NCBI GenBank assembly: GCA_964187785.1
Contig: OZ076419.1
Span: 39,556,001-39,620,000, forward strand
Reading direction: 5' to 3'
DNA from: Amphiscolops sp. MND2022
Lineage: Eukaryota
Length of the DNA: 64,000 nucleotides
Under the pieces are notes generated by a model that saw only the letters and a list, made by a program, of their open reading frames with translations, ran no database searches and had not been told where the DNA came from. The position numbers and the translations under genes were made by a program. Below are positions 2,226-57,122 of this stretch, in pieces (position 1 is the stretch's first letter; each line of letters starts with the position of its first letter).

Positions 2226-2230
2226 AACAG

Positions 2231-31881: not shown

Positions 31882-32112
31882 TTTATTTCTTACACTATAT
31901 TGTATTTTCAATCAAATATGTAAGTAATCATAGGTGACATGTTGGTGCCAGATTACTTTCTGGCCAGAAAATTACGGAGGGTAAAAGTTCTAGTAAATTT
32001 ACTAGAACTGTTACCCTCCGTAATTTTCTGGCCAGAAAGTAATCTGGCACCAAAATGTCACCTATGATTACATACATATTTGATTGAAAAATACAATAGT
32101 GTAAGAAATAAA
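31882..32112. repeat. 231-bp spacer-less near-perfect palindrome
   Basis: Centre AGTTCTAGTAAA|TTTACTAGAACT at 31997/31998. Arms of 116 and 115 bp differ by 3 substitutions and 2 small indels. Confidence 0.9.
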
Positions 32113-34633: not shown

Positions 34634-34722
34634 TTTACGTTGAATTCCGTATTTGGAAAATTATTTGCGCTTATTTTAACTGTACTGTAGGTAGAATTTT
34701 GATTTGATTAGTTTAACAAAGT

Positions 34723-35588
34723 TTAAAGGTATTTACTCTGCCCTTGTCCATGCCCTCTGCCAAATCCCGGTATTCCAGAGCAGCAAGTAAAATTTCGACC
34801 GGGAGCGGGTCGTGACAGGGCCCCTCTTGAAGCAAGAGACAAGGGTAGACCGTGGCAATGCGGGATTTCTTTTTTCACCACGATTGAAGGGCGGCTGATG
34901 TATTTTCGTACTTGGTGTGGGCCACGTCCTCTTCCCGCTTTCATGTATTCAATTTTCTTCTCCTCTTCTTCTAAATCGAGTACCATTTTCTCCAGATATT
35001 GCATTTCTTCAGGAGAAATCTCGGGCGGCTTGCTTTTTTCGTTCAGGTCATTCAGGGGGCTATCGGGACAGCGGTTTTCTTTCGGTAGAGAAGCTACTCT
35101 CGGTGCGTTCCTACCACGGCCCATAGCTGCAAAGTAATTGCGATCTTCTATATCTAGGTTGTATGTAGCTTCCAGTTCCATTACTGATGGCGCGTTTTTG
35201 TTCCCCGGCTTGATTGTCTCCGGTGCCCTCTCATTCCCTAGCTGAGGGATGTTGAATTTCTCTTTTAGAGGCATTGTATGTTTCAACGAGGAGGCCTGGC
35301 ATATCGGTGAGTCTGGCTCCTCATAGTAGCTGTCGGAGTCCGAAATTGAGCCTCTTGCGGGGGGCAGGTTAAACGAAACTTTAGCGAGCTTTTTCTTTTT
35401 GGGAGTAGGTTCCGTTTTCTTTACGTCGCAGTCTGTTTCAAAAGTTGAATCCAGTTGGATAGCCAAGCTTCTAGTGATGAGTCGCTTATGTTCAATTTTC
35501 CGACCATATTCACGGTCACTGACTTAATTGGTGTGCTGGTCATTCCTTCATCCGATGAGATGTCAATGACTAAGGAGTAGCCGTTCAT
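34723..35588 (-). pseudogene. Element A sense accessory ORF (disordered, ~290 aa, one frameshift near 35525)
   Basis: ATG at 35588 gives MNGYSLVIDISSDEGMTSTPIK. A frameshift leads into (V)SDREYGRKIEHKRLITRSLAIQLD..., which is ORF 34723-35466 (basic PKKKK, RGRG motifs). Confidence 0.55.
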
Positions 35589-36190: not shown

Positions 36191-39100
36191 ATGAGTGAAG
36201 ACGCTGTTCCTCCTGTTGTCTCCGGTTTTCTCAGTGGGCATGAGACTAACTTCTGCTTCACTGAAGACGACGCTTATCCTTTGGAAACGGAAGTTGTAGT
36301 TACTTCTTCAGGTTGGTAAAATCTTTCTGACTTCCTGGGCAATAGGACTACTGTTATTTTGGTGATCAGCCTTTTATAGTCTTACCCGTAACTCTGACGC
36401 GTCTGAACCAGATCATGATTTTCAGTAACTCAACCTGGAACTTCCTTGGCTGTTGTTTCCGCTACCACCACGGGTGGGACCTCTGCTACCCCCATGGGGT
36501 TATCTTTGCTGGGTTCTTCTTTGAAGCTGCCTCCAGTGGCCTCAGTGTTGGCTCCTGAGCAGTCTATCAATGATGCTTTGACAACGTTGCTTCCTGCTAA
36601 TCCTACTACTGCGTCTTCAGTAGTTCCGGGCGTTGATGTTTCTTCTGCGGTTCCTCCTGATTTGTCCGAAGTAGTTCCGGGCGATTTTGATGTCAGTGTG
36701 GAGCCTCATGGAGGTGAGGCTGCTACCACCTCCACAGGAGAAGAAAATGCTGTAGAAGAGGAGAATACGCCAAGTTGTAAGTTGTGTGTTTGCATGATTG
36801 TTTCCGTTTGTTGTTGTTGTTGTTGTTTTTTTTTCTTTGCCAACTTGTTGGTTTCTGTTTTCCATTTCTTATCACGCTTGTGTTGTAGGTTCGAAAGTGT
36901 TTCCATTCCGGAGGACGAGCGTGAAGTTCATGGAATTGTCTCCGAAATTGAAAAAGACAGCACGGGCCCCAGATCTTGATGCTACTATGAGCGGTTGGAG
37001 TGGGGCAGAAGACGTATCATTTTCGGCAACTCCTGTGTCACCCGAAATGATGCAGCTGGGTCGTCAGTTGGCTTCGACGGTAGAAGAGCGTACTGTTCGG
37101 CAGATACAGACAGGTGTGTTGTTTGTTTGTGATTGGCCTCCTGTTGATGGAGTGTAGTACGTTGTGGCAACGTTGGTTTTGGGTGTTACGTTTGTTTGAT
37201 TGGTTTGTGTGTATTATAGGCTTTAGCGAGCTTGTTGAGAAAGTGGAGAGTCACTTTGAGCGCCCGAAGACGAAGAAGTATAGCAGTCGGAAATTGTTGC
37301 ATCGTCGGATGCTAGCCCTGAATCCGTTGTTTGCTGATTTCGTGACGGGTTCGGAGTGTGGAAGTGCGAAGCTCTTCTATTGTCGTATTTGTAGAAGAGA
37401 CGTGAAGATGGGCTCAAAAGGGGCAGCTGAGTTTGTTCGTCATTTCGAGTCGAGGAAGCATTGGGAGCAGGACGTCACGTATCGTGTGCACATGGGTCTC
37501 CCTGTGTACAACAAGCTAATGGAGCCCATGGAGCTGAGTGCCCGACAGAGGGACGACTTCCTTTCGCGGCCCTTCGTGGATTTGGGCGGGGAGTTTCCTT
37601 TCCCTGAGGACATGTTCCCCAAACATTCAAAAGCTTCTTCGAAGGTGCCACTGATGACTCTCGTTTCGAGCTTGAGTGATGTGTTACGCAGTGGTGGAGA
37701 TTTCACGTTGGTCCGTCGCCTGCGGGGCTACTTCCTTGCGTCTCTGGGCGGTCGGGATCCGGAATTCACCTTGCAGTGGAGTCGTTCAGAGACTGTGGTT
37801 AGTACTTTTGTGTAGTTAGTACATTTGGTGAGTGGTGTTCTGTTATGCCGCATTTGCTCCTTTTATTGTAAGCTGCTAGGTGGCCGTAAAAGTGTACTGT
37901 GGTGCGATTTCGCTCTCCGTTGTTTGTTTTCTCTTCCTTCTTCTTTTTCATTTGAGTGTTTGTTTTAGTCCGTGTTGTGTCAAGGCCTTGTTCCCCGCGT
38001 GATGCGCGTGATGTTCAAGAATATTGGGCAATTTCGGGAGTAAGCTCTGCAATACGAGAAGAGTACGGAGGTGGAGCGTTGTTTCGTTCTCTTCTGGGAG
38101 GACAATTATTTGAAAAAGGTATGTGTTGATTGTGAGTCGCTGCTGCAGCGTGTGCCAAAACCGGAGTTGCTGCCCTTGGCACGAGTCGTCTGTAGTTTAT
38201 CGCCTGGGAAGTTGCCTTTGGCTATAGTCGGTGGAAGTCCGTCCTTAGTCCGTGTCTTGGGTGACACTCGAGCTGACAGTCGTGTCTTTGTGTCTTACCA
38301 GCCCTTCACTAGTGAGATGTTGATTCGTTGTATCCGGCAAGCCTATCAGGACGTGTTCAGTATGATGGAGGTGACTTCCCTGGTGGATTATACTGTGTTA
38401 CGCTTGAAGACTGCCATTTACGAGGACTGGATGGAGGAGAGAGTCATATTGTGTAAAAGTGTTCGTCAGGGCCACGTGGAATTCGCTGATTTGCGGGAAG
38501 TACTGTCAGATCTGATCGAGTTATGGCCTTCAATACGTCCATTTGTTCGATGTACTGGTAACCCTGAGGCTAAGGACAAGGCTGAACGGGTGAGTGAAAA
38601 TGGTTCTTTCGGTCCGTTGTAATTGCGGTGTTACGTATTGTTGTATCCTGTTGTGTATATTTTAGCTACAGGGGATTGATTGGTTACTAACTGCCGATAA
38701 TATGATAACGTATCGGTTCAGTCTGCTGAAAGTAATCCTTGATACTTGTGAGTGTTCTCTCTTGAGTTGATGGATTGTTTCTTGATTGTTGTTGACTGCG
38801 TATTTATTCGTATCATTGGCTGTGCCTTTCTGTCTTCCTCTTTTTTTTTGTGTATTGGAGTAGGGTTGTTCTTCTGTTGTATACGAATCATGGTGTGTGT
38901 TTTAGTCCACAACAATTTCCCCAAATTGCGACAGGGTCAGGCAGATTATGCTTTCCGTGCTCATGGCGAGTTTTGTAACTTTGTGTATTGCCTGCTCTTG
39001 AAAACTCGCAGCACCAGTGGTCTTCCTGAAATTCATGCTTGGGAGTCTTACATGGATGTCGTGAAAGTCCGAGATTTCGCTGTTGTTCCGTGCGATTCCT

Positions 39101-40209
39101 TTCTCTCCAGTCATGACTTGGGCGAGCAGTTATCCGCAGGCAAGACGAAAGAGTATGTGGCTTTCCGGCTTCATTGTCGGCAGTTTGTTGATCGTCTGAT
39201 CATCATTTTACTGGAAAGCACATATGCACGTTCTGTTATTGCTAAAGGGATGTGTAGTTTCTGCCCCGAGTTGATGCTGGAAGGCGATGATGTGGCCGTT
39301 TTCAGTCTTTTTGCTGATTTGTGCCGTGTTCTTGTATCCTGTGGTTCGCTGAGTGTGGACGAAAGTAGTGCGGCTTTGGAGGAACATAAAAGTTTCATTG
39401 TGGAAAAACGTGGGTATCATTCTTCATCAGGGCAGTCTGCTGGTGACATCGTGGATGTGGTGCCGTACCTGCTCCGTGATGTTGGATTTTTGTCACGACC
39501 ACATTTGCTCCGGGTATTCAGGCTGTGTTGTCTTGTCTCGGGAGTGTCTGCCTCACGCTATCCTGCCGTGTCTCTGGATTTATCTGGGTTTGCATTGAGT
39601 GTTGCAGACTTTCTGAGCTATGTGCAACTGGTGCAGTCTTATATATTGAGCGAAGGATATTCCCATCAGTCCTTCTTCAGTGATCAGACTGTTAAAGTTG
39701 TGAAAAAGGCTATCGCAGATGCTGGCAGATTTTTTGGAGCGTCTAACTTCAGTATGTGGACCGAGTTTTGTGGGGAGGATGTGGATGCCTTTGTTGCAAA
39801 ATATAGTACGTTGTTTACTACTTTCGTCGCGGTGCGTCGGAAGAGCTTCGATGCTCATTATGTGGAGTACAACAATGCAAATCGGATGTCCCGGTTGTCT
39901 GAAAGTGGCGATACAGCTGGTTCGAGTGGTTCCCTGAGTTCTGTGATTCAGCGGAAGAGGCAAGATACAGGTCCTCCAAGTGTTGCTTCCGTGAAGTCTG
40001 GTGGCAGTAAGTCAAGTAATGGCGAAACGAAATTGGGGTCTAAGTCTGCTACTATTTCGTCTAAAGGGAAGAAGCAGCTGAAAAATGTCGGTGGTAACTC
40101 GGGCGATGGAGCTGGTTCATCTAAAGGAAGAAAGAAAGCTGTGCGAGATGCTGATGATGATGGCTCTGGTAGTCAGCCAAAACCTAAGAAAATGTCCAAA
40201 AACTGTTGA
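36191..40209 (+). CDS. Element A antisense cargo gene, 7 exons, ~1093-aa zinc-finger protein (one in-frame TAA at 38041)
   Basis: join(36191-36311,36426-36776,36889-37113,37220-37797,37969-38589,38666-38747,38906-40209). All introns are GT-AG, phases 1,1,1,0,0,1 are mutually consistent, and the total of 3282 nt is 1094 codons. CX2CX16HX5H finger at 37381-37461. Confidence 0.8.
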
Positions 40210-40363
40210 TGATTTGATTTCTTGTAGACTTTGATGTAGTTATATTTTCCTTTTATTGTCCGCTGATCTCCGTTGTATTAGTTTTTGAGTATATAGTTTT
40301 AGAAAATCCCGAGAAAAATTGACGTAGCCATTCCGGTTCGGTTTGGTTTGTTGAGTTTTTTAG

Positions 40364-42088
40364 CTAGTCTTGAGTTGGACGTGAGTCCTCCGTAGTAGCT
40401 GAGTCAAGCCTTCGAAAATCAGGATTGACATTAGGTTTCGGATTAGGTCGTAAGTTGTATCTTCCCACTTTTCTAGGATTATATCCAACGACGATAGGCG
40501 GCAATTCGGGTGTTTTGGGAGGGCTTTGTATCGGTGGTGGGGTCAAAATATATGGGTTATCGCTGATATTTAGATCAAATGACGTAACGTTGTCGGAGGG
40601 TGTTCTATCTCCTTCAGTGTTTTCATTCGTGGTTGTTTGAACCACTTCATTTTCCATTGTAGTTTCGCCTGTAGTTGTTTTAACCACATCATTTTTCGTT
40701 GTAGCTTCGTTTGTGGTTGTTTTAACCACTTCATTTTCCGTTGTGCTGTCGGCGTTGCCTGTTGTGTCTGTGATTTCTGCAACTGTAGCTTCTTCGGCGG
40801 CGTTTTCTGTGGTATTTCCGAACAGAACTTCTCCGAATTCGGTTTCCCAAGCTTGCGCGTACCAATCATTGTGGGTTGTTTTAACCTCTGGATCTGGAAG
40901 GTAATCTTCCCTTCTGACTGTTACGTCAGGTACTCGCTGATTGGGCGCATATAGCCTTAGGCGAATTCTATGGAGGGTTTGAGTATACCTAGTTCCCGTG
41001 CGACGTACGACGTAGTTGTTGTTCGAGAGTACTTTGACTACTATGTAGGGTCCTGTCCAAATGCAATCTTTAAAGGCGAATTTCATTGACTGATTGTCTG
41101 CCTTCGGATTAAGGACGTAGCAGTAGTCGTTGACTTTGAGCGGTGTAGCCGTTGCTTTCTTGTCATAATACTGTTTGTATTTGAGGTAAGACTGCATTAG
41201 GTTCTCTTTGGCAGCGTGGTGTATTTCGGCTATTTGTTTCTGTAATTGATCCGTTAGTTCTTCGTTGCTATCTTTTTCCCAATTAGGTTTCAATCCAAGT
41301 TTTATGTCCAAAATGTTGTACGGAATGCGTCCGTGAAACACTGTTGTAGGTTCGCAACCTAGGCTTTCATGGTAGCTTGTATTGTAATTCATGACTGCAA
41401 TCTGGACGTATTTGTGCCACATAGAGCGTCGTTCTCCCGTTGATATCTTTAGGGAGGTTTTCAAAGATGTATGCGTCCTTTCTAGGATGCCAATCGTTTG
41501 GGCGTGTTTCGTCGATGCGTGGCTTATCCGTATATCCAGTGTTTGTGCTATTTGGTTGACTACTTCTGACCTGAATTGTGATCCTTTATCCGTTAGAACG
41601 ACGGTCGGTAGGTAGCAGTGTCGTGTCATGACGTCTATTATGCATCGTGCGACTGTTTTTGCTGTCATATCCTGAGTCGGGTAAGCGAAAAGGTAACGCG
41701 AAAAGACATCCATCATCGTTATGATGTGTTGGTATCCATTTGAGGAGGGTAGATTTGGTAGGATGTCTACTTCTAGGCAGTCTTCTGGTCCCATTGTGAA
41801 TTCAGTGTTGCTTAGCATTTTGGGACGTATTTGTCTCGTGTCGATTCTTTTATTGGTAATGCAATCCTGACAACTGGTTACCCAAGCTCTGATTTTGCGT
41901 GCAAGACCCAAGAAGTAGTATTTCGCTCTGCATTCTTGTATCATTTTGGTGATTCCTGGGTGTTTATTTGTTTTGCCATGCAGGTTGGACAAGAGTTCTG
42001 GAACTAGGTGTTTTGGAATGATAATTTGGTTATGGGTGACTGATCCGTCTTCTCCGTAGTATTTTCGCATCAGAACTCCGTCTTTCAT
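40364..42088 (-). CDS. Element A integrase
   Basis: HGKTNKHPG...CQDC zinc-binding module, EVDILP, LTDKGSQF, GILERTH, WTGPYIV. Confidence 0.9.
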   Translation of the reverse strand: MKDGVLMRKYYGEDGSVTHNQIIIPKHLVPELLSNLHGKTNKHPGITKMIQECRAKYYFLGLARKIRAWVTSCQDCITNKRIDTRQIRPKMLSNTEFTMGPEDCLEVDILPNLPSSNGYQHIITMMDVFSRYLFAYPTQDMTAKTVARCIIDVMTRHCYLPTVVLTDKGSQFRSEVVNQIAQTLDIRISHASTKHAQTIGILERTHTSLKTSLKISTGERRSMWHKYVQIAVMNYNTSYHESLGCEPTTVFHGRIPYNILDIKLGLKPNWEKDSNEELTDQLQKQIAEIHHAAKENLMQSYLKYKQYYDKKATATPLKVNDYCYVLNPKADNQSMKFAFKDCIWTGPYIVVKVLSNNNYVVRRTGTRYTQTLHRIRLRLYAPNQRVPDVTVRREDYLPDPEVKTTHNDWYAQAWETEFGEVLFGNTTENAAEEATVAEITDTTGNADSTTENEVVKTTTNEATTKNDVVKTTTGETTMENEVVQTTTNENTEGDRTPSDNVTSFDLNISDNPYILTPPPIQSPPKTPELPPIVVGYNPRKVGRYNLRPNPKPNVNPDFRRLDSATTEDSRPTQD

Positions 42089-42420
42089 TATGATTCTTTC
42101 TTCGTGTCGTAATAGGTTTCGTCCTCGTGGTTCAGTTTTGAGAAGATGTTTGTCATATTCTTCGTGTGAGATCCGTTGTTTCAGTGCTTTAAGGAGGGGG
42201 TCTGCATCTTGTTCGTTTCTGATCCGTGCATTTTCCTTAATTGCACCGAAAGAGTAGACTGTGGAGTTGAATGGTATCTTGATGACTTCGGTTACTTTTG
42301 TTGATAGTTCTTTTTCATGTTCGTCTAGGGCACGTCACTTGCTGAGTTCTTTTCGGGCAAAAATTTCTTGTTCAGATTCATCTTCTTCGTCTGGTAGGAA
42401 GAAAAAATGTTCTTCGTCGG

Positions 42421-43761
42421 CTACATCTGATGATTGTAGATTAACCTCAATCGGGACGTTAGGATGTCGTCTCGTAGTTTAAGTTGTACCTTTTCTTTCG
42501 GTGTAAGTTCGAGTCTTGAGAGAAAATCTGCTGCCGTGTTTTGGGAGCCTGCTACGTGCATAATTCGGAACTTGAATTGTAACACATAGTCACAGGCGTT
42601 CCAGAGTGCAGGGGGTGTTGTTTTCGTCTGGAAGAATCTAGTTACTGAGCGGTTGTCCGTTAAGACCAGTGTTGGAATTGTTGTTTCCCATAGTATGTGG
42701 CTGTATTCGAGGAAGGCATGGTAGATTGCTAAGAATTCCTTGCAGTAGATGGACATTTTCAGTTGCGCAGGTGAAAAAACTCGTGATCCGAACACTACTG
42801 GTGCGAAGGTTTTTCGTTTGGAGAGTTATTTGCGCTCGTCGTTCTCTTCGATCAAGAGGGCGTAGCCACGAAAGCTTGCATCCGTCATTAAAACGTACTG
42901 TTTTCCTGCTATGGGCTGTCGGAGTGCAAGTCCACAAGCTTCCGCTAAACTGGCGTTAATTTTCTTGAAGTTATCGACAAGTTCTTCTGAAATTCTGATC
43001 TTGGAGTCTGCTTTGAGTAGTTCGTACATGCCGATGAGTTTTTCTGACAAGCGCGGTATGTAGTTGCGGTAGTAGTTAACAAAGCCAATGTATTTTTGAA
43101 CTTGTTTTTTGGATTTGGGGAAGCGGACTTTGGAGAGGAAATTTTTGACTTTTTGATCTTGCGGGGCTACTCCGTCGGGGGTGATGATTCGGCCAAGGAA
43201 TTCGATTTGGGTTACTCCAAAATGACATTTTTCGAAGGTTAGTTTTAGTCCTGCTTTCCTAATGCATTTGAAGACTGCTCTGATGTTCTTTATGAGTTGT
43301 TCCGTTGTGGTTGCGGCAATGCCAATGTCATCTACATATTGTGCACATTGGTCTGCTTTGATGACTGAGTCCAGGTACTCACGCATGAAGATCGAAAAAG
43401 CTGATAGAGCTCTGCTTGGTCCTTGTGCCAGGCGACGATAGGCGAACGTCCTACTAGCAAAATTAAAAGCAAGTAACTCTACTGACCTTTGATCTGCCAT
43501 TTGAAGGCAGTGGTACGCCTGGGAGCAGTCAAGTTTGCAGAACAGTTTTTTCCCTGCTAGGTGTTGTGCCGGATCTGAGAGGGTGCTGACAGGGTGGTTG
43601 TTGTTGATGTAGTCATCTGCTATGAGTGCGTTGATTTTGCGCAGATCCACCAGCAGCCTCAGCTTGCCGTTGGGTTTCCGTTGTGCAAATATAGGGCTGG
43701 CGTATTTGGAGAAGGGGAGTGTCGTAATGATACCGTATCGGTGCATGAGAGCCAGTTCCAC
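42421..43761 (-). pseudogene. Element A RT and RNase H (frameshifted)
   Basis: ASPIFAQRKPNGKLRLLVDLRKIN, KLDCSQAY, QYVDDIG, LMTDAS, KEFLAIY and AADFLSR across ORFs 42826-43761 and 42421-42795. Confidence 0.9.
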
Positions 43762-43933
43762 AGTTAGATCTTCTTTGAGATTGATGGGGACTGGTAGACT
43801 TTGTGTGTAGACTGGTTTGTCATCTTGTGGTGTTAGCTGACTTTGAATTGTGTGTTCATCCCCCGTTGTCTAGCCGGTGTCGAGCGAAGATGTCGTTGAA
43901 TTCGACAATGGTGTCCTCGAGGTTTTCACGGTC

Positions 43934-45052
43934 TTAGTTCGCAATTAGTGAGTCTGTCCATTTGAACATGGATAGGAATTTGTTGCGAGACTCTTCGTTT
44001 TTGGTTGGGTCAAGTTTTTCTAACTCGGCGAGGTCTCGCAGTTCTTTCAAGATTCGCTTTTGTATGGGCGAATGTTCCTGTTCGTTGCCTGGGTGTTCTG
44101 GGGTCGGAAACCAGAATTTCTCTTCATTATCGTCGGGCCGCTCTACTTGCATTAGTGCATTGATGTACGTGACCACATCGTCATGGTCAGTTAGGAGATT
44201 CAGGGCGGCTATGTCAACTGGGCGGATCATCTTCGTTTCTTCGGGTTTCAGGATTTGCAGTTCGGCCATTTTGGTGTTGGTGGCTATAGTGTATGGGAAA
44301 TCCGTGGTGTTGGCGATTTTAATTAGTATTTTTTTGTCTCTGGCTGTTGTAATAGCTGGGGCTACTATTACATTCGCGCATTCATCGAATTGTGGTAGGG
44401 GTTGTAAAGTGCCCGTTATTGAGTGTTCGATACTCACAGGGATTGTTGCGTAGATGATTCGGGTAGAGTGCGCTGGAATTGTATGCTTGGCTTCGGTCTT
44501 TATCGTGATGGGTTTGGGATTGCACTTTTGTCTTTCATCTGTGAGCGCCATTGTGATTTGGATTTTAGGGAAGTCGATGGTTCCTTGTGCCGTGTCGAGA
44601 ATTGCGGCGTGTTTACGTAGGAACGCTAATCCAATTATGGGGAATGACGTTTGATTCATGATGATGAATGTTTCTTCAAAGGTGTAATCCCCTATTTTGA
44701 AACGTAGGGTGTACGTGGCATGTGGTTGTTCTAGTTCGGCATTGGCATACTGCACTTTGAAAGGGGGTGGGGGTGCCTTATTGACGATGCACTGACTAGC
44801 GTGCTGTCGGAGTTTTTCAGCGTCCCTTTCGCTAATAGCGTTAATGTACGCACCTGAGTCGACTAGTTCGTCAATTTTGATTGTGTTGAATTCGACTGGT
44901 AGAAAAAGCATTCGTTTTTTCTTCTTTAGGGCGATGGAAGACATTAACGGAATGTAGTCGTCATCTTTGTCGTGTTGGATGAATTCTTTGATGGCATCTA
45001 GGTCTTCAGGCAGTTTTGAGGGACATTCCGTGATTTCTACGTCGTCGTCCAT
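43934..45052 (-). CDS. Element A aspartic protease followed by a beta-rich, dUTPase-like spacer domain
   Basis: LVDSGAYINAI and PIIGLAFL protease motifs. The following ~120 aa (TIPAHSTRII...KIANTTDFPYTI) resemble the pseudo-dUTPase seen in some Gypsy pols, which is an inference. Confidence 0.8.
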   Translation of the reverse strand: MDDDVEITECPSKLPEDLDAIKEFIQHDKDDDYIPLMSSIALKKKKRMLFLPVEFNTIKIDELVDSGAYINAISERDAEKLRQHASQCIVNKAPPPPFKVQYANAELEQPHATYTLRFKIGDYTFEETFIIMNQTSFPIIGLAFLRKHAAILDTAQGTIDFPKIQITMALTDERQKCNPKPITIKTEAKHTIPAHSTRIIYATIPVSIEHSITGTLQPLPQFDECANVIVAPAITTARDKKILIKIANTTDFPYTIATNTKMAELQILKPEETKMIRPVDIAALNLLTDHDDVVTYINALMQVERPDDNEEKFWFPTPEHPGNEQEHSPIQKRILKELRDLAELEKLDPTKNEESRNKFLSMFKWTDSLIAN

Positions 45053-45600
45053 CTGTGCTGCGGCTGGCGCAGTTTTTGGAGGGGTTACTGGAGGATCAAC
45101 ATTTTCTCGTTTTCGTCTTACTTGATGTGCCCATATTGTTTTATCTTCAATGCAGATTATGTTTTCTGCGTCTATCGGTGTGGACGTAATGGTGACGGGT
45201 ACTGTTGGGGATGGTGTTGTTCTTTTTAGAATTGGCGATGGTGGTGATGGTAGGTTTGTGATCCCCGTGGATTGGGCTTGAGGGTTTGATACTTGAATTT
45301 TGAAGGATAGTTTATTTGTATCGTAAATGGTTGGTTCATCCCAAGGGTCACATCTGTAGTCTCTGTCGTATATTAAATTCGGTCTGTTTTTGATTCCGGC
45401 AACGGTCTTTTGAGTGTCGCATAGTTATCGGGTGACTCCGTTATCCACTGGGGTAGTGGTGTTGGGTCGTCTGGGTGTCTGGCGTTATGTCTGAGAATCA
45501 TGCCGACGTTCCAACGGCGTTGCCAGTCATGAGTTGGTTCTTCGTTACATTCGGTTAAAAAATCTTCTTCATACCTGTTTGGGGGGTCCTCTATCGTGTA

Positions 45601-45654
45601 CGCCCTCGCGTCTACTTTTTCCCCAAATCGTAGGCGCGGCGATTTCAGTTTTTT
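45601..45654 (-). promoter_or_regulatory. -1 ribosomal frameshift signal (A AAA AAC, 6-nt spacer, GC-rich stem-loop)
   Basis: Minus strand CCA AAA AAC TGA AAT then CGCCGCGCCTAC...GTAGACGCGAGGGCG, at the gag stop (45645). Confidence 0.7.
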
Positions 45655-47051
45655 GGCTGGGAGGGCAGTGTGGGCACAGGTTGTTCACTGATTTTGTTGG
45701 TTGGAATGGTGAATTCCCGTTTCTTCCTTCTGGGGTCATTTGCCGCATTGGCTCCGTTCCAACAGTTCTCAGTTTTGTGCATCTTGCCGCATGTATCACA
45801 CTTGGGCTTGGGTGCTTCGTTTTGAGCTGGGTTTTTTGTGGTTGTTTTGGCGACATTGTAACGTTCTCGTTGGAGTCTGCGACACTGTGCTTTATTTGCC
45901 ACAGTGAAAGCAATGACCTCGTTGTTGTTGGTCCTTTTTATCGTCCGTCACTACGGCGTCCACTGTGTCAAGTGGGACTAGGGTTGTTTCGTCGGGCGCA
46001 CCTAGTCCGTTTAGTCTCATTTCTCTCTCAAGATGCAACACTATGTCATTGTAGGGTTTATCTTCCAGATACGCTCTGTTGAGGATCTTCTTGACGTGGT
46101 CCGGAATTTTGGCGTAGATTGCTTTATCAATGAATCTTTGTGCTCCTGAGCCGAATGCTTCTTTTGCTGTTTTTTGCAGGGCATCAAGAAACTCATGGAG
46201 TTTCTGTTTAGTGGGGTCAAAATGCAGCGCATCCCACTCGCATCTCGCTTTAGCAGATGATTGGAAATCGCCAAAGCGACGTTTGAATGCCGTTATGACT
46301 TCTTCTAGGTTGTCTTTTTAGTGTCATCTAGATTACAATACGCTTGTAGCGCGTTTCCTCGTAGGCGTGAGTGGAAGTAGTTGATCATTTGTATCTCAGT
46401 TAGGTGAGGGTACATTTTGATATTATTTCGGAATAGGTCCTCAAAAAGTTCAAACTTTTCGGACTTACCATCGAACACTGGAAGCGAAGCAGTGAGTGCT
46501 TTCGGCATCGGGAGTAGGTTGGTAGCTGGGAATGTTTGCGGTGGTGGCGCAAACAGTATTTTAGATGTTGAAGGACGGTCTTTTGTTTGCTCGTTGGATG
46601 CGCGTTGTTGTTTTGATCTTTTCGTGGGTTGGTTGGTAGAGTCATTGAGGACTCCTGTCACCATGTTACGACTATTTATCGGTGTTGTTTTAGAGTTAGT
46701 CGTATTATGAGTTTTGACGAGGGTGGACGTCCTTGCTACGGAGACGTTCTCTGTTTCAGAGTCAGAGTCTTGGGCATTAGCGAGAACATTTTGTTTCTTG
46801 TTTAAAGGTGCTAACAGTTTAAGCATTTCCTTTTGATTTTCCGCAAGTATTTTAGCCAGATCAGACATAATCTCCTTTCTTAGCGATGTTTTTATTTCAG
46901 TCAAACTTTCTGGTTCTACCCTAGGAATCTTGCTAGAACTAGCTACAAGGGTCTCAGGCGGAAAGTTTTCAGTTACAGAGGTTTCGAAATCACCAGAGAC
47001 CAGCTCTGCTACAGCTTCCCTTTTCTGGCTTCTAGTTGTCATTTTGATCAA
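45645..47051 (-). pseudogene. Element A gag (frameshifted), starting inside the 5' LTR
   Basis: ORFs 46305-47051, 46041-46274 and 45645-45902. LPVFDGKSEKFELFEDLF capsid-like block and a CDTCGKMHKTENC knuckle. Likely ATG at 47042. Confidence 0.8.
46652..46663 (-). other. Primer-binding site TGGTGACAGGAG (element A)
   Basis: Abuts the LTR end (...GTAACA|TGG). An identical 12-mer sits at the same position in element B. TGG is complementary to tRNA CCA. Confidence 0.8.
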
Positions 47052-48804
47052 GAGAGAGAGTGAGAGAGAGAGAGAGAGAGATTATCTTTGGGAAAGGTTG
47101 AATTCTTCAAAGATTTGTTTTCTTTTGAAAACGTTAAGATAACGGAACAGAACTGGTTGTTACAAAACAAGTCAAAAACTAACTAATTTACATGTATGTA
47201 TTGCATCTTTATACTTTCCCAGCATCATTTGTTCCTCACCTAAAAATTCCTAGGTATCATAAAAATCGGGTTTGTTCAACAAAAAGCGCTAATGATTCAT
47301 ATTATTTCAGTCCCGCGTCATAAAATCAGGCATCAAAATTCCTAGTTGCGTCAGCGTTCCGTAAAATTTTGTTGAAATCATTTTTGTTCAGGCGGTTCAT
47401 TTCCTGTTTGTGCTTCAAAATTGCGGCAAAATAGAAGTCTAGTTGACATTTTCATCAGCGTAGGCACGCCGGCGTGATCAATTAGTCAGCAATCAAGTTG
47501 AGAAGATTGAAGTTCGAAGCAAAAGAATGACACTCAAAAATGGCGACGAAATCGAGACGGAATGAGTCAACTTGGAAGTGGAAGGAAAATATGGAAATTT
47601 GGTATAAAGGAACAAACGATGCTGAAACAATAATCCCAAATTCAAACATATGAATTACCTGCTAATGGCATACTACATTATTTACACTGAACACAAATTA
47701 AGTCCAAACGGGACTTTAACGGGATACAACAACGATTATACTGCTGATTAGTTGAGCGTAACATGTTCGTAATATCAAGCGGAAAGCAACTTCAACATTT
47801 TACATAATAACCATGATATTCATCAAAACATAATCAAAGTTTGGTCATTAGCCTGATTATTGCTATCATAAAAGACAACTGTTATTATTGACTTGAAAAG
47901 GAATTAGCGTTGACCTTACGTCTTACATTAGGATTACCATCAAGATATTCCAAGTGCTATAGCAAATCAAGTAGATTTGTTCTATTAAGGAAGTACTTAA
48001 GCAAAGCATAATGTCAACGCGATCAAGTGATTTACCATGACGATACAAATCCAGAACATAAAAATACCATTGCAATTTCTATCATCCTTCCTTACAGCAC
48101 AGTTTTCCTTATATGAGAATCATAACTCTTAAGTCTTTCAAGTGCATCGATTTAAAAGGCATTCGTTTGGATTTCGTTTGAAGCAGTGTTTCTCATTTGC
48201 GTTTTTAAAATTCGCTCCGTAGGCGCTACGTATTAGGATTATCTATAGCTGAACAGCGGAATACAATTGTACAATCCGTTCCGTAAGTGCTCCGTACGTA
48301 TTAAGGTTGCTTATAGTTGAGCAGCAGTAGCAAGCGGAGTGAAAACGGAAAGCGTAGGCGATTTCATTCTCTTTCTTAGCTAGTAAGCGTTGCTAGGGGC
48401 AACCACGCCTAATTCTACTGGTATCGACTCGGATAATTCCGCCAGAAAGCGACGCTATTGGTCCGTAAAAATAGAAACGTCCGTCACTTGCCTAGTTGAG
48501 TGACGCTGTCATAACGTTGTAAACATTTACTTAAAATCACTTGACTGCGGTTTTAAGTGGATATTTAACAACTGCTTTAATATTGGAATACATTTCCACT
48601 CTATTTTTGTATGTTCTGACAATTTAGATCTTATGGACTCCGTTGGGATCTCGGAGTTAAATGTCGTTTCTGTGTTTTTATTTTAGTGTGGAGTGTTAAA
48701 AATGATCCCGTTTGCAAAATTATTTAGTATTTAGATTGGAATGGAGAACTCAGAAGATAAAACCGGAAATAAAACGGTGTTGCGTGTGAAAACATTAGAC
48801 CGGA
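46664..48804 (-). repeat. Element A 5' LTR (truncated by insertion of B; contains (GA)n at 47051-47081)
   Basis: Matches 32642-34589. Homology stops exactly at ATTAGACCGGA|TGTGAT, where element B begins. Confidence 0.85.
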
Positions 48805-49578
48805 TGTGATAATCCTCTTGTTCGGATTCTTCATTTGAAAGCTCTATTTGGTCTAAGTCTGTTTCAGTTTCAAAGAAGGGTTTAGCAGGATGTTTCAAGT
48901 CCTTCATTTTAGATGCTCTAAGTGAATAGTCGTCGTTCTCGGAATCAGAGTTTTCGTTATTGGATGCATGAACTCCTATAAATTTACTCGATTTGGATCC
49001 CGATGGTTGATTTTCTCGCATTTCATTTATATCCGACCTAGGATTAGTTACTGTGGATGCACTCTTATTAGACTTTATTTCCTTTATAAACGCTTCAAGT
49101 TTGTTTTCCATTTCTTCTCTCATCTTTTCAATCCTATCGTTGTTCTTTTGTTCCATGATTTGGGTCCAAACTTGCATTTGATTGTTTATTTGACTAGGTT
49201 CGGTTAACTGGTTTTCAGAGCTATTTTCACCTAAATTTCCTTGGGCAACATTCCTAAGATCAATTAAAGCTTCATTACCTGTTTTAGGGGTTTCTATTTG
49301 TGTTACCTCCACTTCTCTGTCTGGGGACGGTGTCTCAAGTCTTCTAGACCTTCGGCTCCTTTTATTTCCCATGTTGTTCTCAAGTGAAAATGTTTTCTGG
49401 CTTTTGGGGAAGAATTTGAATTAGTCTTATATCCCACAAGAGAAGCAAAGTTGAAGTTTTACAGTGGCGAAATCAAAGTTTTACAGTTATTTGAGAAAGT
49501 GACTGCACTTGATGAGGGTTAGATTCTTAATGAATCTCTCTGATTGAAAACTTTGAATAAAATCCAAAAACCATGACA
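48805..49578 (-). repeat. Element B 3' LTR (~774 bp)
   Basis: The minus strand reads AAAAAGGAG|TGTCAT...ATCACA. The upper boundary is inferred from this PPT-like tract and the TGTxAT terminal symmetry. Confidence 0.7.
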
Positions 49579-49794
49579 CTCCTTTTTATGGGAGTCATCA
49601 TATGAAATCGAAGACAAAAATAGAATTACGTCCAATGACGTTATTCTATAAAAATAGCACAACTACATGACATCATAAAAGTATGATTGGGAAAAGAAAC
49701 TAATGAACCCTGGGACTCTCTAAAGATGGCCTTCTTTCGTAGTTGAAATGGCATCTAGATAACATTATAACACGTGCTGGATTTATTTAACAAG

Positions 49795-49995
49795 TCCTGC
49801 GAGAACCGTATAGTGACGAGTATGCGTCACAACTGGTTCCGCAGGATGCCGTATAAAGTTTTTATGAAAAGCGCATAATGCCGCATACTCGTTACACCTT
49901 GAAACGTGTAATGCCGCATAATGATACTAGTAAAAACGCATAATGACGAGTATACGTCACACCTTAATCCGCATATTACCGCATAATTGTACTAG
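49795..49995. repeat. Degenerate CCGCATA-core tandem array 1 in element B
   Basis: Recurring CCGCATAATG(A/C)CG / GACGAGTATGCGTCAC words at roughly 30-bp spacing. Confidence 0.55.
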
Positions 49996-50282
49996 CTATG
50001 AAGTAGATTACTATCTGATGACGAATTTTGACGCATCAGGACCTTTAGAATATTTGATTAGACAATGAGATAACTCAATGCATGATCACAACAAGGGTTC
50101 CCAATGAATTAATGAAGGTATGTTAGCACTATGATGAAGGTCCATTCACAATAACCATATTATAAATATCATATTTACATGACTTTCGAGACTAAAAAGC
50201 ATTGAGTTTTAAAGCATCATATAAGACGGGTTCATCAGGTTTTTAGCAAGTTTGTTGAAATGAGTTTATCATTCGTTCCTCT

Positions 50283-51302
50283 TCAAAGTTGCGCCACGGA
50301 ACCATCGCATCTTGATGAATGCGACAGTCCCGCATTTTTAAAGAGGAACAGGGCTGCTTCAAATCCATGAATAAATGCTCCTGATCTAATCGCTCTTTCT
50401 TTCACTTTTTCTCCCTCGTATTCAGTTGCCATGAGGTACTCGCCCAAAGTTTCCAGCGCAATTTGATCGTAGCACTTACCACATATGTCGCAGTAACCCG
50501 CCACATTTGACATGACAGTTGGCAACAGTCTCATGCTCTGTCTCTCTCTTGCAGGGATCATCATGATATTCGTGCTGTGGGTCACATGAAAGGGAAAGCC
50601 CAACTGCACCATAGGTTGAACTGTGATCTGTTGGTTCTCAATGGAAGCTCCCCTCATTGGGATGGGGAAGAACGCGGGTGACAAATTAAATCCTTGCACT
50701 GCATTTAGAGTACCTTGTGACGGAGCTATATCTCTTCGTAGCTCTTGTTCCATGGGTTCACTGAGTTGCGTGTGCTGAAAATCGGATGTCTCTGGCCTGT
50801 AGTTAGGTGGGTAAGTGGGGGTTGGTCTTGGCAATATTCCACCTGCACTGGGGTTCACTCTTTGGGTAGGGGGAACCCTGGCGGTAGGCCGACCATAATT
50901 GTTTGTTCCCTCAGGAGGGGTATTACCCAGCGTCCAGGGGAACAAATTCCCTTCTTCAAACTCGCTATCTATGAATGAACTTGGGGAAATCATTGTATCT
51001 TCTTGCGGTTCCCCTAACAACTCCATCAGGTCTTGTTCTATCTGTGTCCCTGTGGCACTTAGAGACTCATTCTGTTCTGCTGTATTGGCCGGATCCACGT
51101 ATAACGAAGCCAATGTTGAGCCCATGAATGCCGACATCAGGTTACTCCTAGTTGTATTAAATCGAAATCTTTCGTCAAGCTGAGCAATATCTCCGGGAGC
51201 CATTGAGAAACTATTTTCTGACTCGCTCGAAATATCCACCACATCAGGTGATATTGGGGAGTACAGAGAATTCATATCAGAATTGAATTGGAGTTTTTCC
51301 AT
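50283..51302 (-). CDS. Element B sense accessory ORF (339 aa; disordered, with a C-terminal CxxCG domain)
   Basis: Intact ATG-started ORF. N-terminal VVDISSESE, Pro/Ser/Gln-rich middle, and C-terminal CDICGKCYDQI...ERAIRSGAFIHG. Confidence 0.7.
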   Translation of the reverse strand: MEKLQFNSDMNSLYSPISPDVVDISSESENSFSMAPGDIAQLDERFRFNTTRSNLMSAFMGSTLASLYVDPANTAEQNESLSATGTQIEQDLMELLGEPQEDTMISPSSFIDSEFEEGNLFPWTLGNTPPEGTNNYGRPTARVPPTQRVNPSAGGILPRPTPTYPPNYRPETSDFQHTQLSEPMEQELRRDIAPSQGTLNAVQGFNLSPAFFPIPMRGASIENQQITVQPMVQLGFPFHVTHSTNIMMIPARERQSMRLLPTVMSNVAGYCDICGKCYDQIALETLGEYLMATEYEGEKVKERAIRSGAFIHGFEAALFLFKNAGLSHSSRCDGSVAQL

Positions 51303-52102
51303 TTTAGATTTGTAGAGAAACCACTGAGTATTTCAGATTTTCAAAAATTTTAGAAGGCAACTGATTTATGAGATTGCAAAGACCATATGGTGATCGATTT
51401 TCTTCTTCCTCTTGATTTTGGATGAAAACCCGCGGAAAAATTGCTTGTCATGTTCTGATCCTGCAGACATCCTTATAAGGTTTTCGTAGGTAGTAGATTT
51501 TCGGGTTTCATTCACAACGAGTAGTAAACAATTTCCATAAAAGGTGTTTCAGGTAACGCCTTTACTGATCATCACCCATCATCAAAGCTTAAAGCTTTCT
51601 TCATACGTTTAAATGATAGATAAACAAATTCTTCCTAACTTCAGAATAACTAACCAGGAAATATTTTCATGGAAATATTCATTGAAACAACTCAAAAGTG
51701 AATTCATTTGTTCTTACATGACTAAGTTTACATGAAAATGAAAGATGTTAAAGTGAATGTTTCATTTCAGTTTCATATCGTTACGGAAACAAAGTTTATT
51801 TTAAAGAGAAACATAGTTTAAACCCAGTCCCGCATTTGAAAAATGCAGCAGGGTTAGTAATAAAGCAAATAGGTTTTCATGTTTGTTGGTAATTCCAAAA
51901 AACTTGTACCAGCAGTCTAGACTTCTAAAAACATATCAAAATCAAAAGAGCGCCGGTCTTGTATTGGCACATTATTAATATCACATATGTCTTGCCATTA
52001 AGAGTATGTAGTTTCTTCATCATATTACAAAATACTATTCCATTCATACGCTTCTAATCATTGACGACATTAATCCACTCCTTTTAAATGCATTCAGCGA
52101 AA

Positions 52103-52350
52103 ACCGCATGATGCCGAGTACGCGTCACTACTCAATCCGCATAGTGCCGCATAGTCCTTGACTGCAATTCCTCATATTGCCGTGTACATGTCACTGCAAT
52201 TCCGCATACTGCCGCGTACTCGTCACTGCAATTCCGTATACTGCCGCGTACTCGTCACTGCAATTCCGCATACTGCCGCGTACTCGTCACTGCAATTCCG
52301 CATACTGCTGCGTATTCGTCTTCAGTCGATCCGCATACTGCCGTCTACTC
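52103..52350. repeat. 32-bp tandem repeat (ACTGCAATTCCGCATACTGCCGCGTACTCGTC), array 2
   Basis: Units at 52161, 52193, 52225, 52257 and 52289, plus degenerate flanking units. Confidence 0.9.
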
Positions 52351-52419
52351 TAGCATATAAATCATTCCAATTTGGTTCATATTAACGCATTTGCATGTAT
52401 TTTCACACCCAGATCCACA

Positions 52420-55400
52420 ATGAGTCAATCAATCACGCTGGCAGACGTAATTGATATTGAATTAGCCAATCAGATTCCAGTATTTCTTTGCACTTTTGCG
52501 CAAACTAGCATCATTTGCTCTTTGCCTTTGCCTTGTTACGCCACGCCTTTGGAACTTCATCATTTGTCAAACAGTCATATAGTTAAAATAGTATTTCAGT
52601 CCAGAGTTCACAAAACATTGCAGTTCAATCTACTCCTTTTAGCCTTCACCGATTTCAGCTTTATTTTCAGCCTTTTATACTTTATTTGTGGAGTATATAT
52701 TTTATTTCTTAACCACAATCCACTATCCCCTTCTTTGCATCACTTTCGGATGGAGGGAAAACAGGAACAGAGTTTATCTGGGGAGAAAGGGACGCAAGGG
52801 GAGCAATCACCTCGTCGTTACGGTGGAGGGAGGAATTATAATCCATCTTTCTGGTCTGATCCAGGCAAGTCCAACTTTCAATATAATTCTAGTTTGGTTG
52901 ATTCAGTGAATGTTCGGTTTGTTGAGTTGGCCATACTCATACGTGAAAATGATCCTTGTTCATCGGATCAATTTCAGATTCTTTTGAAACGTTTCCGTTT
53001 CCAATTTCTAAGTGGCTTCCGGTTTTCATACATTTCCTGTCCCCGCGTCCGGTTTCAGTCAATTTAAGCGGCTTCCACTTGCATAATTTTGTTTTGTTAA
53101 CTGGATCATTTGTTTCAGTTGAACTAGAGGCCAGTGAATTACATTCAACTCAATCCCCGGTCAAGGTTTATAGACCTCTGCAAACATCCTCTCCTAAATT
53201 TCCTGTCATCTCAGAAACACTTGAATCCCAAAGTACTGCTCCGCTTCAAATCCATGAAGAAATTAGTGTGGAAACTACAATCGAGAACACCCCTGCTGAT
53301 ACTCCAATGACAACCGGGGCTAATCATCAAGAATACACAGTTGAAAACAACCGCACCACTATATAACCAACCCTGAGCAAGAAACGACCCCCACGGGAGA
53401 CATGGAGAGCTCCTATGCAAACATTAGTCGTGAGATAGTGGAAAGCTTCATGGATTCAGAAACAGCTCAGGCCTTTTCTTCACATTATAGCCAATACCTA
53501 CCTCCAGGAACTGGTTCTGGGCTTGAACATGCTATGACCAACGTTACGGAGCAAAATGTACCACCCCATAATGAGCTTCCAGAACTGTCTCCAGCTGACG
53601 GAGGCAACTTCAGTAATGTTGTGATACAAGATGCTGCTCATAGCAGTATTAACATCACTAGGAGGGAGATCCTTGCATTAACTAGAGTCCTGGAACGTAT
53701 CCCACAAGAGTATGTCCTCAATGAAGAGACTAGAGAAGGTCAGACTTTGACCCTAACCATTGTAAACGATACTGAAACTGCTCCCAACGTCGCCTCATCT
53801 AGTCAAGAGGAGGTTGGACAGCCTGTTTCGTCTGACGTTTATCCAGATGAATTACAAGGAGGACACTCAATGGGAAGAGGAAAACGTCGCAGACCAAAAT
53901 ATTCTTTGACTGGAGCTATGCTTAAGAAACATCCATTTCTGGGATTCTCTGCCACTGGCCCCATCGACAAAGACAAAACACCACACAAATGGTGGTGTCG
54001 GGTATGCAGGGTAGAACTTTCTCTAATGAGTAGAGGTAGCCTTGAATTACTATCTCACTACAAAACCGAGTCTCATTTAGTGAAGGAGCACCGGATGCGC
54101 ATGGAGATACCCGGTATGGCCCTCTTCGACAGAGAAGGACGGGAAATCTATGGAATTTCACTGCAAGAAGCTAAGAAAAAAGCCAAAAACAATTACCCAA
54201 TCGCTCCTCAACTCGACGTGTGCCGGCCCCTTGTGGGACAAGAGTCTGTCCCAGATTTCAATGCTGTTACCAACCCCACCGATAAAGTACTGTCGCAGAT
54301 CTGCATACTCGAGCACGGACTTTGCCATGGTGGGCACATCAGAAGCCTTACTGGCATCTATGATGAACTGTCTCGTCTTTCCTCCAGCAGCGGGATGTGT
54401 GAACAGAATTGGAGCCCACAGCGACTTTTTGTAGGTAGTTCTTTCTCAATTGACAGTATTCATTTTCTATCTTAACCGAATTTCCTTCATAGAAATCCCT
54501 TTAATATAAGTTTATTTACTGTGAGTAAGGAACATTTTGTTTGTCTCATAGGGAATTTTCGTCTACATGTTCCGAGAATTGGTTGGATATTGTGTCACTG
54601 CGATCGCTACATCTGGCCATTACTCTTTCGCTTTGCAACATACCCCAACAGCAACGTATCTAATCCTCAATTTCTGGTCGGGGAACGTATTACAGCACGT
54701 ATGCTTGGGAAGTGGACCACGGGGAATGTTGATGCCAAGGAAAAACCTGATGACAGTTTCATCATTCATCAGCCTCTTTGAAGAAGCTCCATCTTGTGTT
54801 GCCCTCATTGACTTCAGTGAAAAGTTAAGTGAATGTCTATCAAACTGTCTCCCAGGAAAACAGCAATCTTCCATTGTCAGTTCATATGGACCAGAAGAGT
54901 TTGAGAAGAGCCTTGCGTTACAAACTTCTCAAATCATTGAGCGCCACGACTTTCGAACGATATTAGACTTTCTCTTAATGAAGTTGAGAACGGTTTTGGA
55001 CCGAGATTGGTTAAAGAAGTTACCACTACTACACAAAGTAATTAAAATACTATATTCGTTTTACTTAAACGTCTAAGTTTCCGAGGTGTGATTTTCCTTT
55101 TCTTTTAGAGTGTAGTCCCCTTGGAGTATTCTCTTCAGGATGCATCATTGATTATAGAGACTTTATCCAATAATTGGGATCACGTGCTTGACCACCTTAA
55201 TCAAGTCGCGAGGCTTCCTGCGTATCGCTTCCATATGCGTGAGGTTATTTGCTCTCCTTTACCATGTTTCCTTTGAGACCAAAAATACGTATTTTCCTTA
55301 TCTTCATGTTATCCTTTCGTTTTAGCCAAGCACTTTGGATGAATGTTTCCGCCTCGACACGGCTTACCTAACCCGCCTCTTCGTCATCCGCTGTGTCCTA

Positions 55401-57122
55401 GACCATTGTTAGTTGTTTTGTATCCATACCACCTATTGTTGTAACAGTTTCTAAGTATTATCATTCCCAAAACTCAAATTCCTCTTTGTAGCAGACTTTT
55501 CATTTCTCCGAAAATCATTGGAACACAATTAGTATATCTTTCCTTTCACGGTATATATAATGGTGCATAACCATTCTGCTGGTTGCGAATAGTGACGCAT
55601 GTTCGCTGTATCTCGTTCCACATTGCTCTGTATTGCCAATCAGCTCATTCCGCATAATGGTGTATAATCATTCAACTGATTGCGCGTAGTGACGTATAGT
55701 CGCTACACCTCGTTCCGCATAGTGTTGTTTAGACATCTAGCTGATTCCGCATAGTGACGTATAGTCGCTACACCTCATTCCGCATAGTGACGTATAATCA
55801 TCCAGCTGATTCCGCATAGTGATGTATAGTCGCTATACCTCGTTCCGCATAGTGACGTATAATCCTTGATTATTCAGCTTTAATGTGTCGGTTTCCACTG
55901 TAGTAATTCCGCACGTGTTTTATGGCGCTGATGCTTTCTTCAAATCAACTCTTGTTCTTTTTGTTTTGTGAAAATGCAGGGCTATTGTATACTTAACTTA
56001 TTTGTTGTTTTAGACAACTCAGCGTTCTCTGAAGTTCAGAAGAGTGTGGATTGTGGATTTCGCGCCTTCAGTCAGTTTACCATTTTTATTTACTCCCAGC
56101 TTCAGAGTATTTTACCGGATTCCTCGCTTGGGAATATATCGGATTGGGACAATTTTTTGCAGCTTGATTTAGATCAAGCAGACTTGCCGTACAGAACCCC
56201 GGACGAGTATGTTCTCAACGAAGATTTTCACAAATTAGTTACTGCGAGTAAATTGCCACGTCCCAGCAAATTCGTTGAACAGTCTATTCGCTTTGTTAAA
56301 TCTTTTTGCAGACAACTATTGGAACATGGGAACATCAAATCTAGACTCATCAGAGGACTGTCAGCATTTGATCCTGCCGTAATCCTTGTTGGACCGGAAG
56401 CCAACTACACGGACGCTATTGAAAAACTGACAAGCCATTTCGTCTCTGTTAACTTGATTACTTCAAGTGTGAAAGTAAAAGTTGTTAGTCAGTACCGATC
56501 ATTAGCAGTTAAATTGCGATCCGGGGATTCTCCAGAGTACGATGATTGGATTACGTTTCTGACTTCTCACTATGAGCTTCAATGTAGACCCGAACTGTTT
56601 CAATTGTTCAAGTATTCATGTTTATGTTTGCCTCCACGTGTTGTAATGCCTCCAGAATTTATTGTTCCAATGGCCGATTTAGAGTCTGGTGAGGGAAACT
56701 TTCAGTCTTGCATAAAAAGTCTTCAGATGTCGTACAGCACTATTCCACATGTTTCCAGCCTGTATCGGGATCCTAAATCAGTGAGTCGCGTTTTCCGCCT
56801 CCTGGGTCGTGGAGCCGATTTATTGGCAGATAGAAAATTTTCCATCTGGAATTTCATGAGGGGGAGTGCTACCCGTAGAACATCATTGTTAGGAAAACTT
56901 GAAACTGGTTATCGCAAGGCTGTTTTGCAACACGATAGGCCAATTGTTTCGTCGACTACAACAACCCCCAGTGTCAGCAGGACTGGAAGTGTGAACAGTT
57001 CTCCTTCACCTGATCCTAGTCTGAGCAGGATTAGTGTATCGCTTAATCGCTGTTCCAGTTCCTCAGTTGAAGATACCGGCAAGAAATCCAACTCCAAGTT
57101 TGCGAAAGGCAAGAAAAACTAA
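52420..57122 (+). CDS. Element B antisense cargo gene (spliced zinc-finger protein, homologue of the element A gene; 5' structure uncertain, frameshift near 53360)
   Basis: Supported exons are ...-54430, 54552-55037, 55109-55243, 55326-55407 and 56014-57122, all GT-AG with consistent phases 0,0,0,1. CX2CX16HX5H finger at 53996-54076. The start at 52420 is tentative. Confidence 0.72.
55585..55865. repeat. Intronic tandem repeat, alternating 33/32-bp subunits (65-bp dimer), core TTCCGCATAGTGACGTATA, array 3
   Basis: GATTCCGC at 55743 and 55808 (65 bp apart); subunit tails alternate between GTCGCTACACCTC and ATCATCCAGCTGA. Confidence 0.85.

Follow-up and report, generated by a model that had tools for sequence, protein, structure and literature searches.

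The 64,000-nt window analyzed here (contig OZ076419.1, positions 39,556,001 to 39,620,000, Amphiscolops sp. MND2022, from a eukaryotic assembly of 1.07 Gb) holds two Ty3/Gypsy long terminal repeat (LTR) retrotransposons, elements A and B, both on the minus strand as given by the Pfam domain order protease, reverse transcriptase (RT), RNase H and integrase in each. On the plus strand, between the end of the integrase and a sense open reading frame (ORF X) that adjoins the 3′ LTR, each element carries a further gene split by several introns, gene A and gene B, respectively. Both elements have TG...CA LTR ends, short target-site duplications and TGG after the 5′ LTR, and their LTR pairs align with 2138 matches and 39 mismatches over 2177 bases in element A and with 1499 matches and 22 mismatches over 1521 bases in element B. 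The RNase H of element B is a Pfam match, and that of element A is a look-alike frame (42421-42825) seen among the open frames. With a probability of roughly 0.7, the two elements belong to a large Ty3/Gypsy clade with an old antisense gene of hAT transposase descent, whose introns would be shielded by their orientation and whose product would be a nuclear, DNA-binding helper.

Gene A comprises seven exons and six introns (1,094 codons) and gene B six exons and five introns, as listed in Table 1. The four-exon 5′ model of gene A is open in 11 of 16 copies. In the window, gene A is interrupted by a premature stop at 38041-38043 (codon 450) and gene B by a frameshift, and any selection on the gene therefore applies to the lineage. 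The six junctions named in the original prediction and the additional intron of gene B all show a GT donor and a TAG acceptor precisely where predicted. The spliced proteins align as had been proposed, with the cores of A (861 aa) and B (796 aa) matching at a blastp E of 9.8e-27 and 18% identity over 678 columns, and with a local score of 300 against 41±5 (maximum 55) for 200 shuffles. Single pairs of unjoined exons also match, with z-scores of 12.8 for the zinc-finger exon, 12.7 for the middle exon and 20.3 for the last exon. The introns of A after residues 192 (phase 0), 399 (phase 0) and 426 (phase 1) match those of B in codon and phase, so that the three core introns of A coincide with three of the four in B, for which a rough estimate of the chance probability is 3e-9 assuming about 2000 sites, or about 2e-5 if only 100 sites are usable. 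An exon of exactly 82 nt is present in both genes and is kept at this length in all 60 A- and B-type loci surveyed; taken alone it shows a weak A-B likeness (z=2.4, with 7 of 200 shuffles scoring equally high). Exons 3 and 4 of gene B (486 and 135 nt) together equal the 621 nt of gene A exon 5.

The gene belongs to a large family. Each of six protein queries returned at least 95-114 genome matches, each search scoring only the approximately 100 best candidates, and a profile search found 728 relatives among database clusters at 50% identity. A set of 100 further loci of 10 kb each was located through the gene, a sampling in which element copies without it are not counted. The gene is antisense to the integrase in all 98 loci with integrase in view (59/59 and 39/39); of the other two, one has gag and ORF X and one, L087, stands alone without any element part. 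An env-type third ORF was rejected as a candidate, as env requires the sense orientation. In four loci (L025, L042, L055, L064) the cargo region contains tandem internal duplications, in which the last exon occurs up to three times at intervals of 3.6 kb. For the 60 A- and B-type loci, junctions were placed by protein similarity alone and fall on GT-AG in 203 of 213 cases, and because the reference junctions were taken from the window this represents conservation at homologous sites rather than independent discovery. No intron is missing from these loci, and among 15 subfamily representatives all 57 introns retain GT-AG. The lengths of the introns are evenly spread modulo 3 (67/68/78) and intron interiors are saturated. 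As introns reside inside elements with LTR pairs and target-site duplications, they have passed through retrotransposition.

The spliced cores are open in 40 of 59 cases. The median ratio of nonsynonymous to synonymous substitution rates (dN/dS) is 0.16-0.17 at dS of 0.05-0.2, 0.14 at dS of 0.2-0.6 and 0.07-0.09 at dS above 1.5, with synonymous sites saturated in 210 of 231 B pairs. Pairs of near-identical copies have dN/dS of 0.33-0.52, within a range of 0.3-0.9 among such copies, as expected from decay after insertion. To judge from these ratios, the gene is under purifying selection at the protein level across the lineage, and splicing at the above junctions is likewise supported for the lineage by sequence comparison. 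The selection that had been deduced from the conserved splice sites thus holds between subfamilies but not for the broken copies in the window.

Relatives outside the fetched loci point to a wider distribution. The database proteins P0223, P0235 and P0259 have 26-28% identity to their nearest fetched locus and read through one or two intron positions (two in P0223). Close matches to P0223 and P0259 are lacking in this genome, and the family is thus likely present in others as well. A search for the metagenome context of these outside relatives did not find it, and longer, spliced database proteins, sought with the last-exon alignment, were not found among 7,988 candidates, which is weak evidence.

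The history of the introns was followed in 40 more distant loci, which gave 22 open models, of which 20 were kept. Among all fetched loci, L060 was dropped for lack of a complete model and L099 and L101 for implausible junctions, and in L118 the donor was set by hand for the 621-nt exon. Ten relatives of A have the 621- and 82-nt exons. A third clade, E, has 20-21% identity to A and B, and its exons of 486, 135 and 82 nt are those of B in 7 of 10 models. The intron described by the original prediction as an extra one in gene B is present, but two of the three deep clades have it, and it is thus likely ancestral and not a later gain, in a tree whose root is not fixed. The last intron is absent from L110, L115 and L118, and the "extra" intron is also absent from L118. 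At these loci the frame crosses the predicted joint base for base and sister lineages retain the intron, so that the nested, exact losses confirm two junctions independently.

The cargo gene is inherited with the element at the deep level and swapped like a cassette at the shallow level. In quick IQ-TREE and FastTree trees, in which 31 of the 60 open cores are included, cargo and integrase agree on three deep clades (Spearman 0.65, 0 of 999 permutations), the cargo evolving faster than the integrase (A-B identity of 18% versus 53%). Within clade B the two trees conflict. L056 and the window copy of B have 92-95% DNA identity on both flanks of the gene and 64% within it, and L026 and L027 have 88-92% across the gene and 69-72% in the LTR and ORF X; these mosaics indicate that the gene has been exchanged between elements.

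That introns in reverse orientation escape the spliceosome is established logic and is consistent with the uniform antisense orientation of the gene. The genomic RNA would correspond to the minus strand of the window, on which the introns of the gene would read CT...AC, so that the spliceosome would ignore them and each new copy would inherit them. The proposal that antisense orientation lets the introns persist agrees with the survey, but the causal role of orientation is deduced, because no sense-oriented copy serves as a control, and the two exact intron losses indicate a shielding that is leaky rather than absolute. The accompanying claim that sense introns are purged is too strong, since in retroviruses and Bagy2 the intron is described as staying in the genomic RNA from which subgenomic messages are spliced (PMC7264820, PMC10186651). 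Expression of the gene would require a separate plus-strand transcript, presumably from an internal promoter likely located in the 0.7-1.4 kb that separate the start codon from ORF X, and this transcript would then be spliced. The exact losses would fit occasional reverse transcription of this spliced mRNA followed by recombination; the mRNA would have the polarity of a minus-strand template, onto which the RT of the element could switch. The non-coding motif GAAACGTTTCCGYTTC at 52986-53002, in intron 1 of gene B, is found in 24 of 34 B-type loci, among which synonymous sites are saturated, and in none of 66 others, and is possibly an ORF X promoter or a binding site.

The product of approximately 1,090 residues is predicted to begin with a low-complexity stretch (acidic in B), followed by a basic cluster, then a zinc finger and a nuclease core that would be "dead", and to end in a basic tail, and the modeled folds make descent from a hAT transposase quite probable. 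Two separately folded exon models tile the Hermes (hAT) transposase in order, at 153-347 and 368-609, with a gap that suits the 82-nt exon. Among the listed matches, Hermes is the only one that spans the whole middle exon, and the predicted fold has an RNase-H core with a helical insertion as in Hermes. The C2H2 finger also lies at the N-terminal place where hATs carry a BED finger (PMC4763223); its residues C48, C51, H68 and H74 are conserved in the three clades, and Pfam gives only a weak C2H2 match (best E=0.054) and not zf-BED. Other comparisons gave less clear results. The fold matches to Hermes have modest Z and high root-mean-square deviation, and hhalign comparisons with ZMYM1-type and Ac/Hermes-type hAT alignments are not significant (E=0.17-0.49). 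The hAT rows of the Atlas score only 0.88-0.89, with no usable match for the middle exon. The cargo profile missed the hAT frames of the same genome (best E=0.1), the gene has no Pfam match to the dimerization domain PF05699, and Foldseek with the last-exon model stayed without a hit at E≤0.001. A search of the genome for PF14291 gave no signal at any locus, controls among them. The exons and 59 relatives were also scanned with Pfam, and PDB was searched by sequence, neither with a convincing result. Inverted repeats of at least 40 nt are absent around genes A and B, in a search that did not extend to shorter repeats or an 8-bp duplication. The nonsignificant profile comparisons, the quality of the fold matches and the Atlas scores would also suit a protein from another RNase-H-fold family with a helical insertion, for which Hermes would merely represent a common arrangement. 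This is unlikely in view of two independently folded exons that both select Hermes, in order and with a fitting gap, as well as the full span of the middle exon and the location of the finger.

Slightly less likely still is a captured host gene, possibly itself a domesticated hAT derivative, that serves the host or chromatin generally and for which the element is mainly a vehicle. The multi-intron structure is typical of host genes, the six canonical hAT frames of this genome (496-697 codons) are intronless and hence not close donors, and P0223 and P0259 lack close relatives here. A single-copy host parent could also be missed because of the limited number of candidates scored per search. Against this stand the integrase or other element parts beside the gene in all but the one bare locus and the agreement of the cargo tree with the integrase tree at depth. 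The same genome also contains, at loci L143-L150, hAT transposases of several distinct families, with long open frames and motifs that appear canonical by eye. Independent recent insertions were rejected as an explanation.

The catalytic residues of the presumed hAT ancestor have likely been lost. DDE and CxxH motifs are reported to be required for hAT cleavage or hairpin formation (PMC4763223). The literature searched yielded no paper that gives the Hermes residue numbers. With catalytic positions placed by secondary structure in 40 sequences, Asp on strand 1 is found in 0 of 40 at positions 24-29 and in at most 12 of 40 at positions 30-31, Asp after strand 4 in 6 of 40, and Glu of the C-terminal region in at most 9 of 31. 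CxxH occurs in 1 of 40, at an unrelated place. Neither the DDE triad nor the CxxH of an active hAT transposase is conserved in the cargo protein. It is improbable that a rebuilt active site has kept the protein working as a nuclease or strand-transfer enzyme, e.g., one that aids integration or cuts rival elements. The core fold is retained, Glu27 on strand 1 is present in 9 of 9 clade-E sequences and one Asp/Glu is invariant in 40 of 40; the strand-1 position is, however, Ala, Phe, Arg or Val in the other clades and the strand-4 position is mostly Gly. A decaying passenger, or a sequence conserved only through an overlapping sense gene or as antisense RNA, would account for the many broken copies and the high dN/dS among near-identical ones but is largely refuted by the low dN/dS of 0.07-0.17 between subfamilies with saturated synonymous sites, by the fixed exon lengths and by the near lack of minus-strand frames of at least 120 aa, with none over gene B and just one, of 143 aa, over gene A; conservation through an overlapping sense gene was rejected.

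For this gene of likely hAT descent, selection between subfamilies suggests that lineages with a working copy replicated better and thus that the protein likely helps its own element. A tentative proposal is that the zinc finger and the dead core act in the nucleus as a DNA-binding regulator of element transcription or as a protection from silencing. A fuller scenario is more doubtful still: a hAT gene may have landed backwards in a Gypsy ancestor, been disarmed with its introns kept and become a swappable cassette that now binds element DNA to activate it, shield it or steer integration, the exact intron losses arising as the element RT switched onto spliced antisense mRNA.

The location of the gene, antisense between integrase and 3′ LTR across the family, is that of known antisense ORFs (aORFs). 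The aORF-3R of Ty3/Gypsy elements in plants (Grande gene23 of maize, RIRE2 of rice, Retand TRP28 with PF04195) shares this site and orientation, its presence in nearly all copies, a long region from pol to LTR with tandem repeats and a suspected nuclear or DNA-binding role, and the Grande aORF has its own internal promoter (PMC7264820, PMC11963269). Genes A and B differ from the plant aORFs in their five or six spliceosomal introns at fixed positions and their predicted hAT-like fold, and the Transposase_28 domain PF04195 was not matched in Pfam scans of the exons and relatives. The review regards aORFs as dissimilar to other transposons and asks that spliced antisense transcripts be looked for (PMC7264820), and the word "intron" does not occur in the main text of the Retand paper (PMC11963269). 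Boty-like elements of Botrytis cinerea also carry an antisense extra gene, brtn, in a Gypsy element; this example is fungal, and the papers that cite it mention, in the passages concerned, neither descent from a hAT nor deeply conserved introns nor their exact loss (PMC8365987, PMC4227169). The hbz gene of HTLV-1 and the aph genes of HTLV-2/3/4 are likewise described as spliced antisense genes for nuclear regulators that are carried through reverse transcription, but they are driven from the 3′ LTR, overlap sense genes and encode bZIP-type proteins of about 31 kDa (PMC10186651). Genes A and B, compared with hbz, are non-overlapping, have about 1,090 codons and start 1.4-2.4 kb inside the LTR. 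The hAT transposases (Hermes 4d1q, 2bw3, 8edg) and domesticated hAT proteins such as Kat1 (PMC4763223) share with the product predicted for genes A and B an arrangement in which a zinc finger precedes an RNase-H-like core, a helical insertion and the C-terminal part, whereas in genes A and B DDE and CxxH are not conserved, PF05699 is lacking and the gene is kept by a retrotransposon rather than a host. Other extra ORFs are reported from rotifer elements (PMC5408684).

Antisense extra genes are therefore already known from plant and fungal Gypsy elements and HTLV-1. The brtn gene of Zhao et al. 2011 is reportedly multi-exon and transcribed, in which case introns in antisense orientation are by themselves no novelty for an LTR element. 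The literature search, which did not cover Zhao 2011 and Steinbauerova 2011, both of which may bear on the matter, turned up neither an antisense gene of an LTR element that derives from a hAT or has several introns nor work on how the introns of such genes are conserved. The origin and function of antisense extra genes of LTR elements are described as an open puzzle (PMC7264820), and for one of them the present family suggests a likely source among mobile elements of another class and shows strong protein-level selection. Its hundreds of copies in three deep clades provide material for study and a natural experiment on intron evolution, in which antisense introns stay through repeated reverse transcription and are sometimes lost exactly, so that RNA-mediated intron loss becomes countable on a tree. 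The family also serves as a warning that repeat-annotation pipelines overlook spliced genes on the opposite strand.

Table 1. Features of elements A and B and their antisense genes (window positions).
Feature	Position	Strand	Remarks
Element A 3′ LTR	32642-34817	-	TG...CA ends; target-site duplication GTAAT at 32637-32641
Element A ORF X	34723-35523	-	Sense ORF, no known family, extends into 3′ LTR
Gene A exon 1	36191-36311	+	ATG; then phase-1 intron
Gene A exon 2	36426-36776	+	Low complexity; 351, 402 or 453 nt in copies
Gene A exon 3	36889-37113	+	From 5′ model
Gene A exon 4	37220-37797	+	C2H2 zinc-finger motif; then shared phase-0 intron
Gene A exon 5	37969-38589	+	621 nt; predicted RNase-H-like core and start of helical insertion; holds premature stop
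Gene A 82-nt exon	38666-38747	+	
Gene A last exon	38906-40209	+	Helical domain (predicted), basic low-complexity tail
Element A gag-protease-RT-RNase H-integrase	40364-47081	-	Ty3/Gypsy order; split over several frames
Element A 5′ LTR, main part	46664-48804	-	Rest past window end, about 64792-65024
Element B 3′ LTR	48805-50326	-	Target-site duplication CCGGA at 48800-48804
Element B ORF X	50283-51332	-	349 aa, sense, without Pfam match
Gene B exon 1	52750-52864	+	ATG; GC donor in window, GT in other subfamilies; phase 1
Gene B exon 2	53119-54430	+	Acidic low-complexity region, basic cluster, C2H2 finger; frameshift near 53360
Gene B exon 3	54552-55037	+	486 nt; predicted RNase-H-like core
Gene B "extra" intron	55038-55108	+	GT donor, TAG acceptor
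Gene B exon 4	55109-55243	+	135 nt
Gene B 82-nt exon	55326-55407	+	
Gene B last intron	55408-56013	+	606 nt; contains tandem array, about 65-nt spacing
Gene B last exon	56014-57122	+	
Element B gag-pol	57377-63886	-	Ty3/Gypsy order; frameshifted
Element B 5′ LTR	63271-64000	-	Continues to 64791 outside window

The remainder of the element A 5′ LTR lies beyond the window because element B inserted into it. ORF X is oriented head-to-head with the antisense gene in both elements, has no Pfam family, is apparently intronless and has 35-60% identity between subfamilies. The gag frame starts inside the 5′ LTR (46305-47081 and 62987-63886, both on the minus strand) and reads across the primer-binding site, so that both LTRs of each element hold a gag start. 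Related tandem arrays with 32- and 65-nt spacing are located at 49830-49985 in the element B LTR, at 52104-52350 upstream of gene B and at 55544-55861 in its last intron. Outside the two elements, the sequence at 31905-32090, 550 nt from element A, is a nearly perfect palindrome whose 93-nt arms adjoin without a spacer, and a family of short direct and inverted repeats at 13510-13982, 15476-15763 and 28781-29216 perhaps represents ends of a non-autonomous DNA element. Other Gypsy pol fragments (RNase H, integrase) at 2042-4859 and 10907-11410, both on the plus strand, are unrelated to elements A and B.

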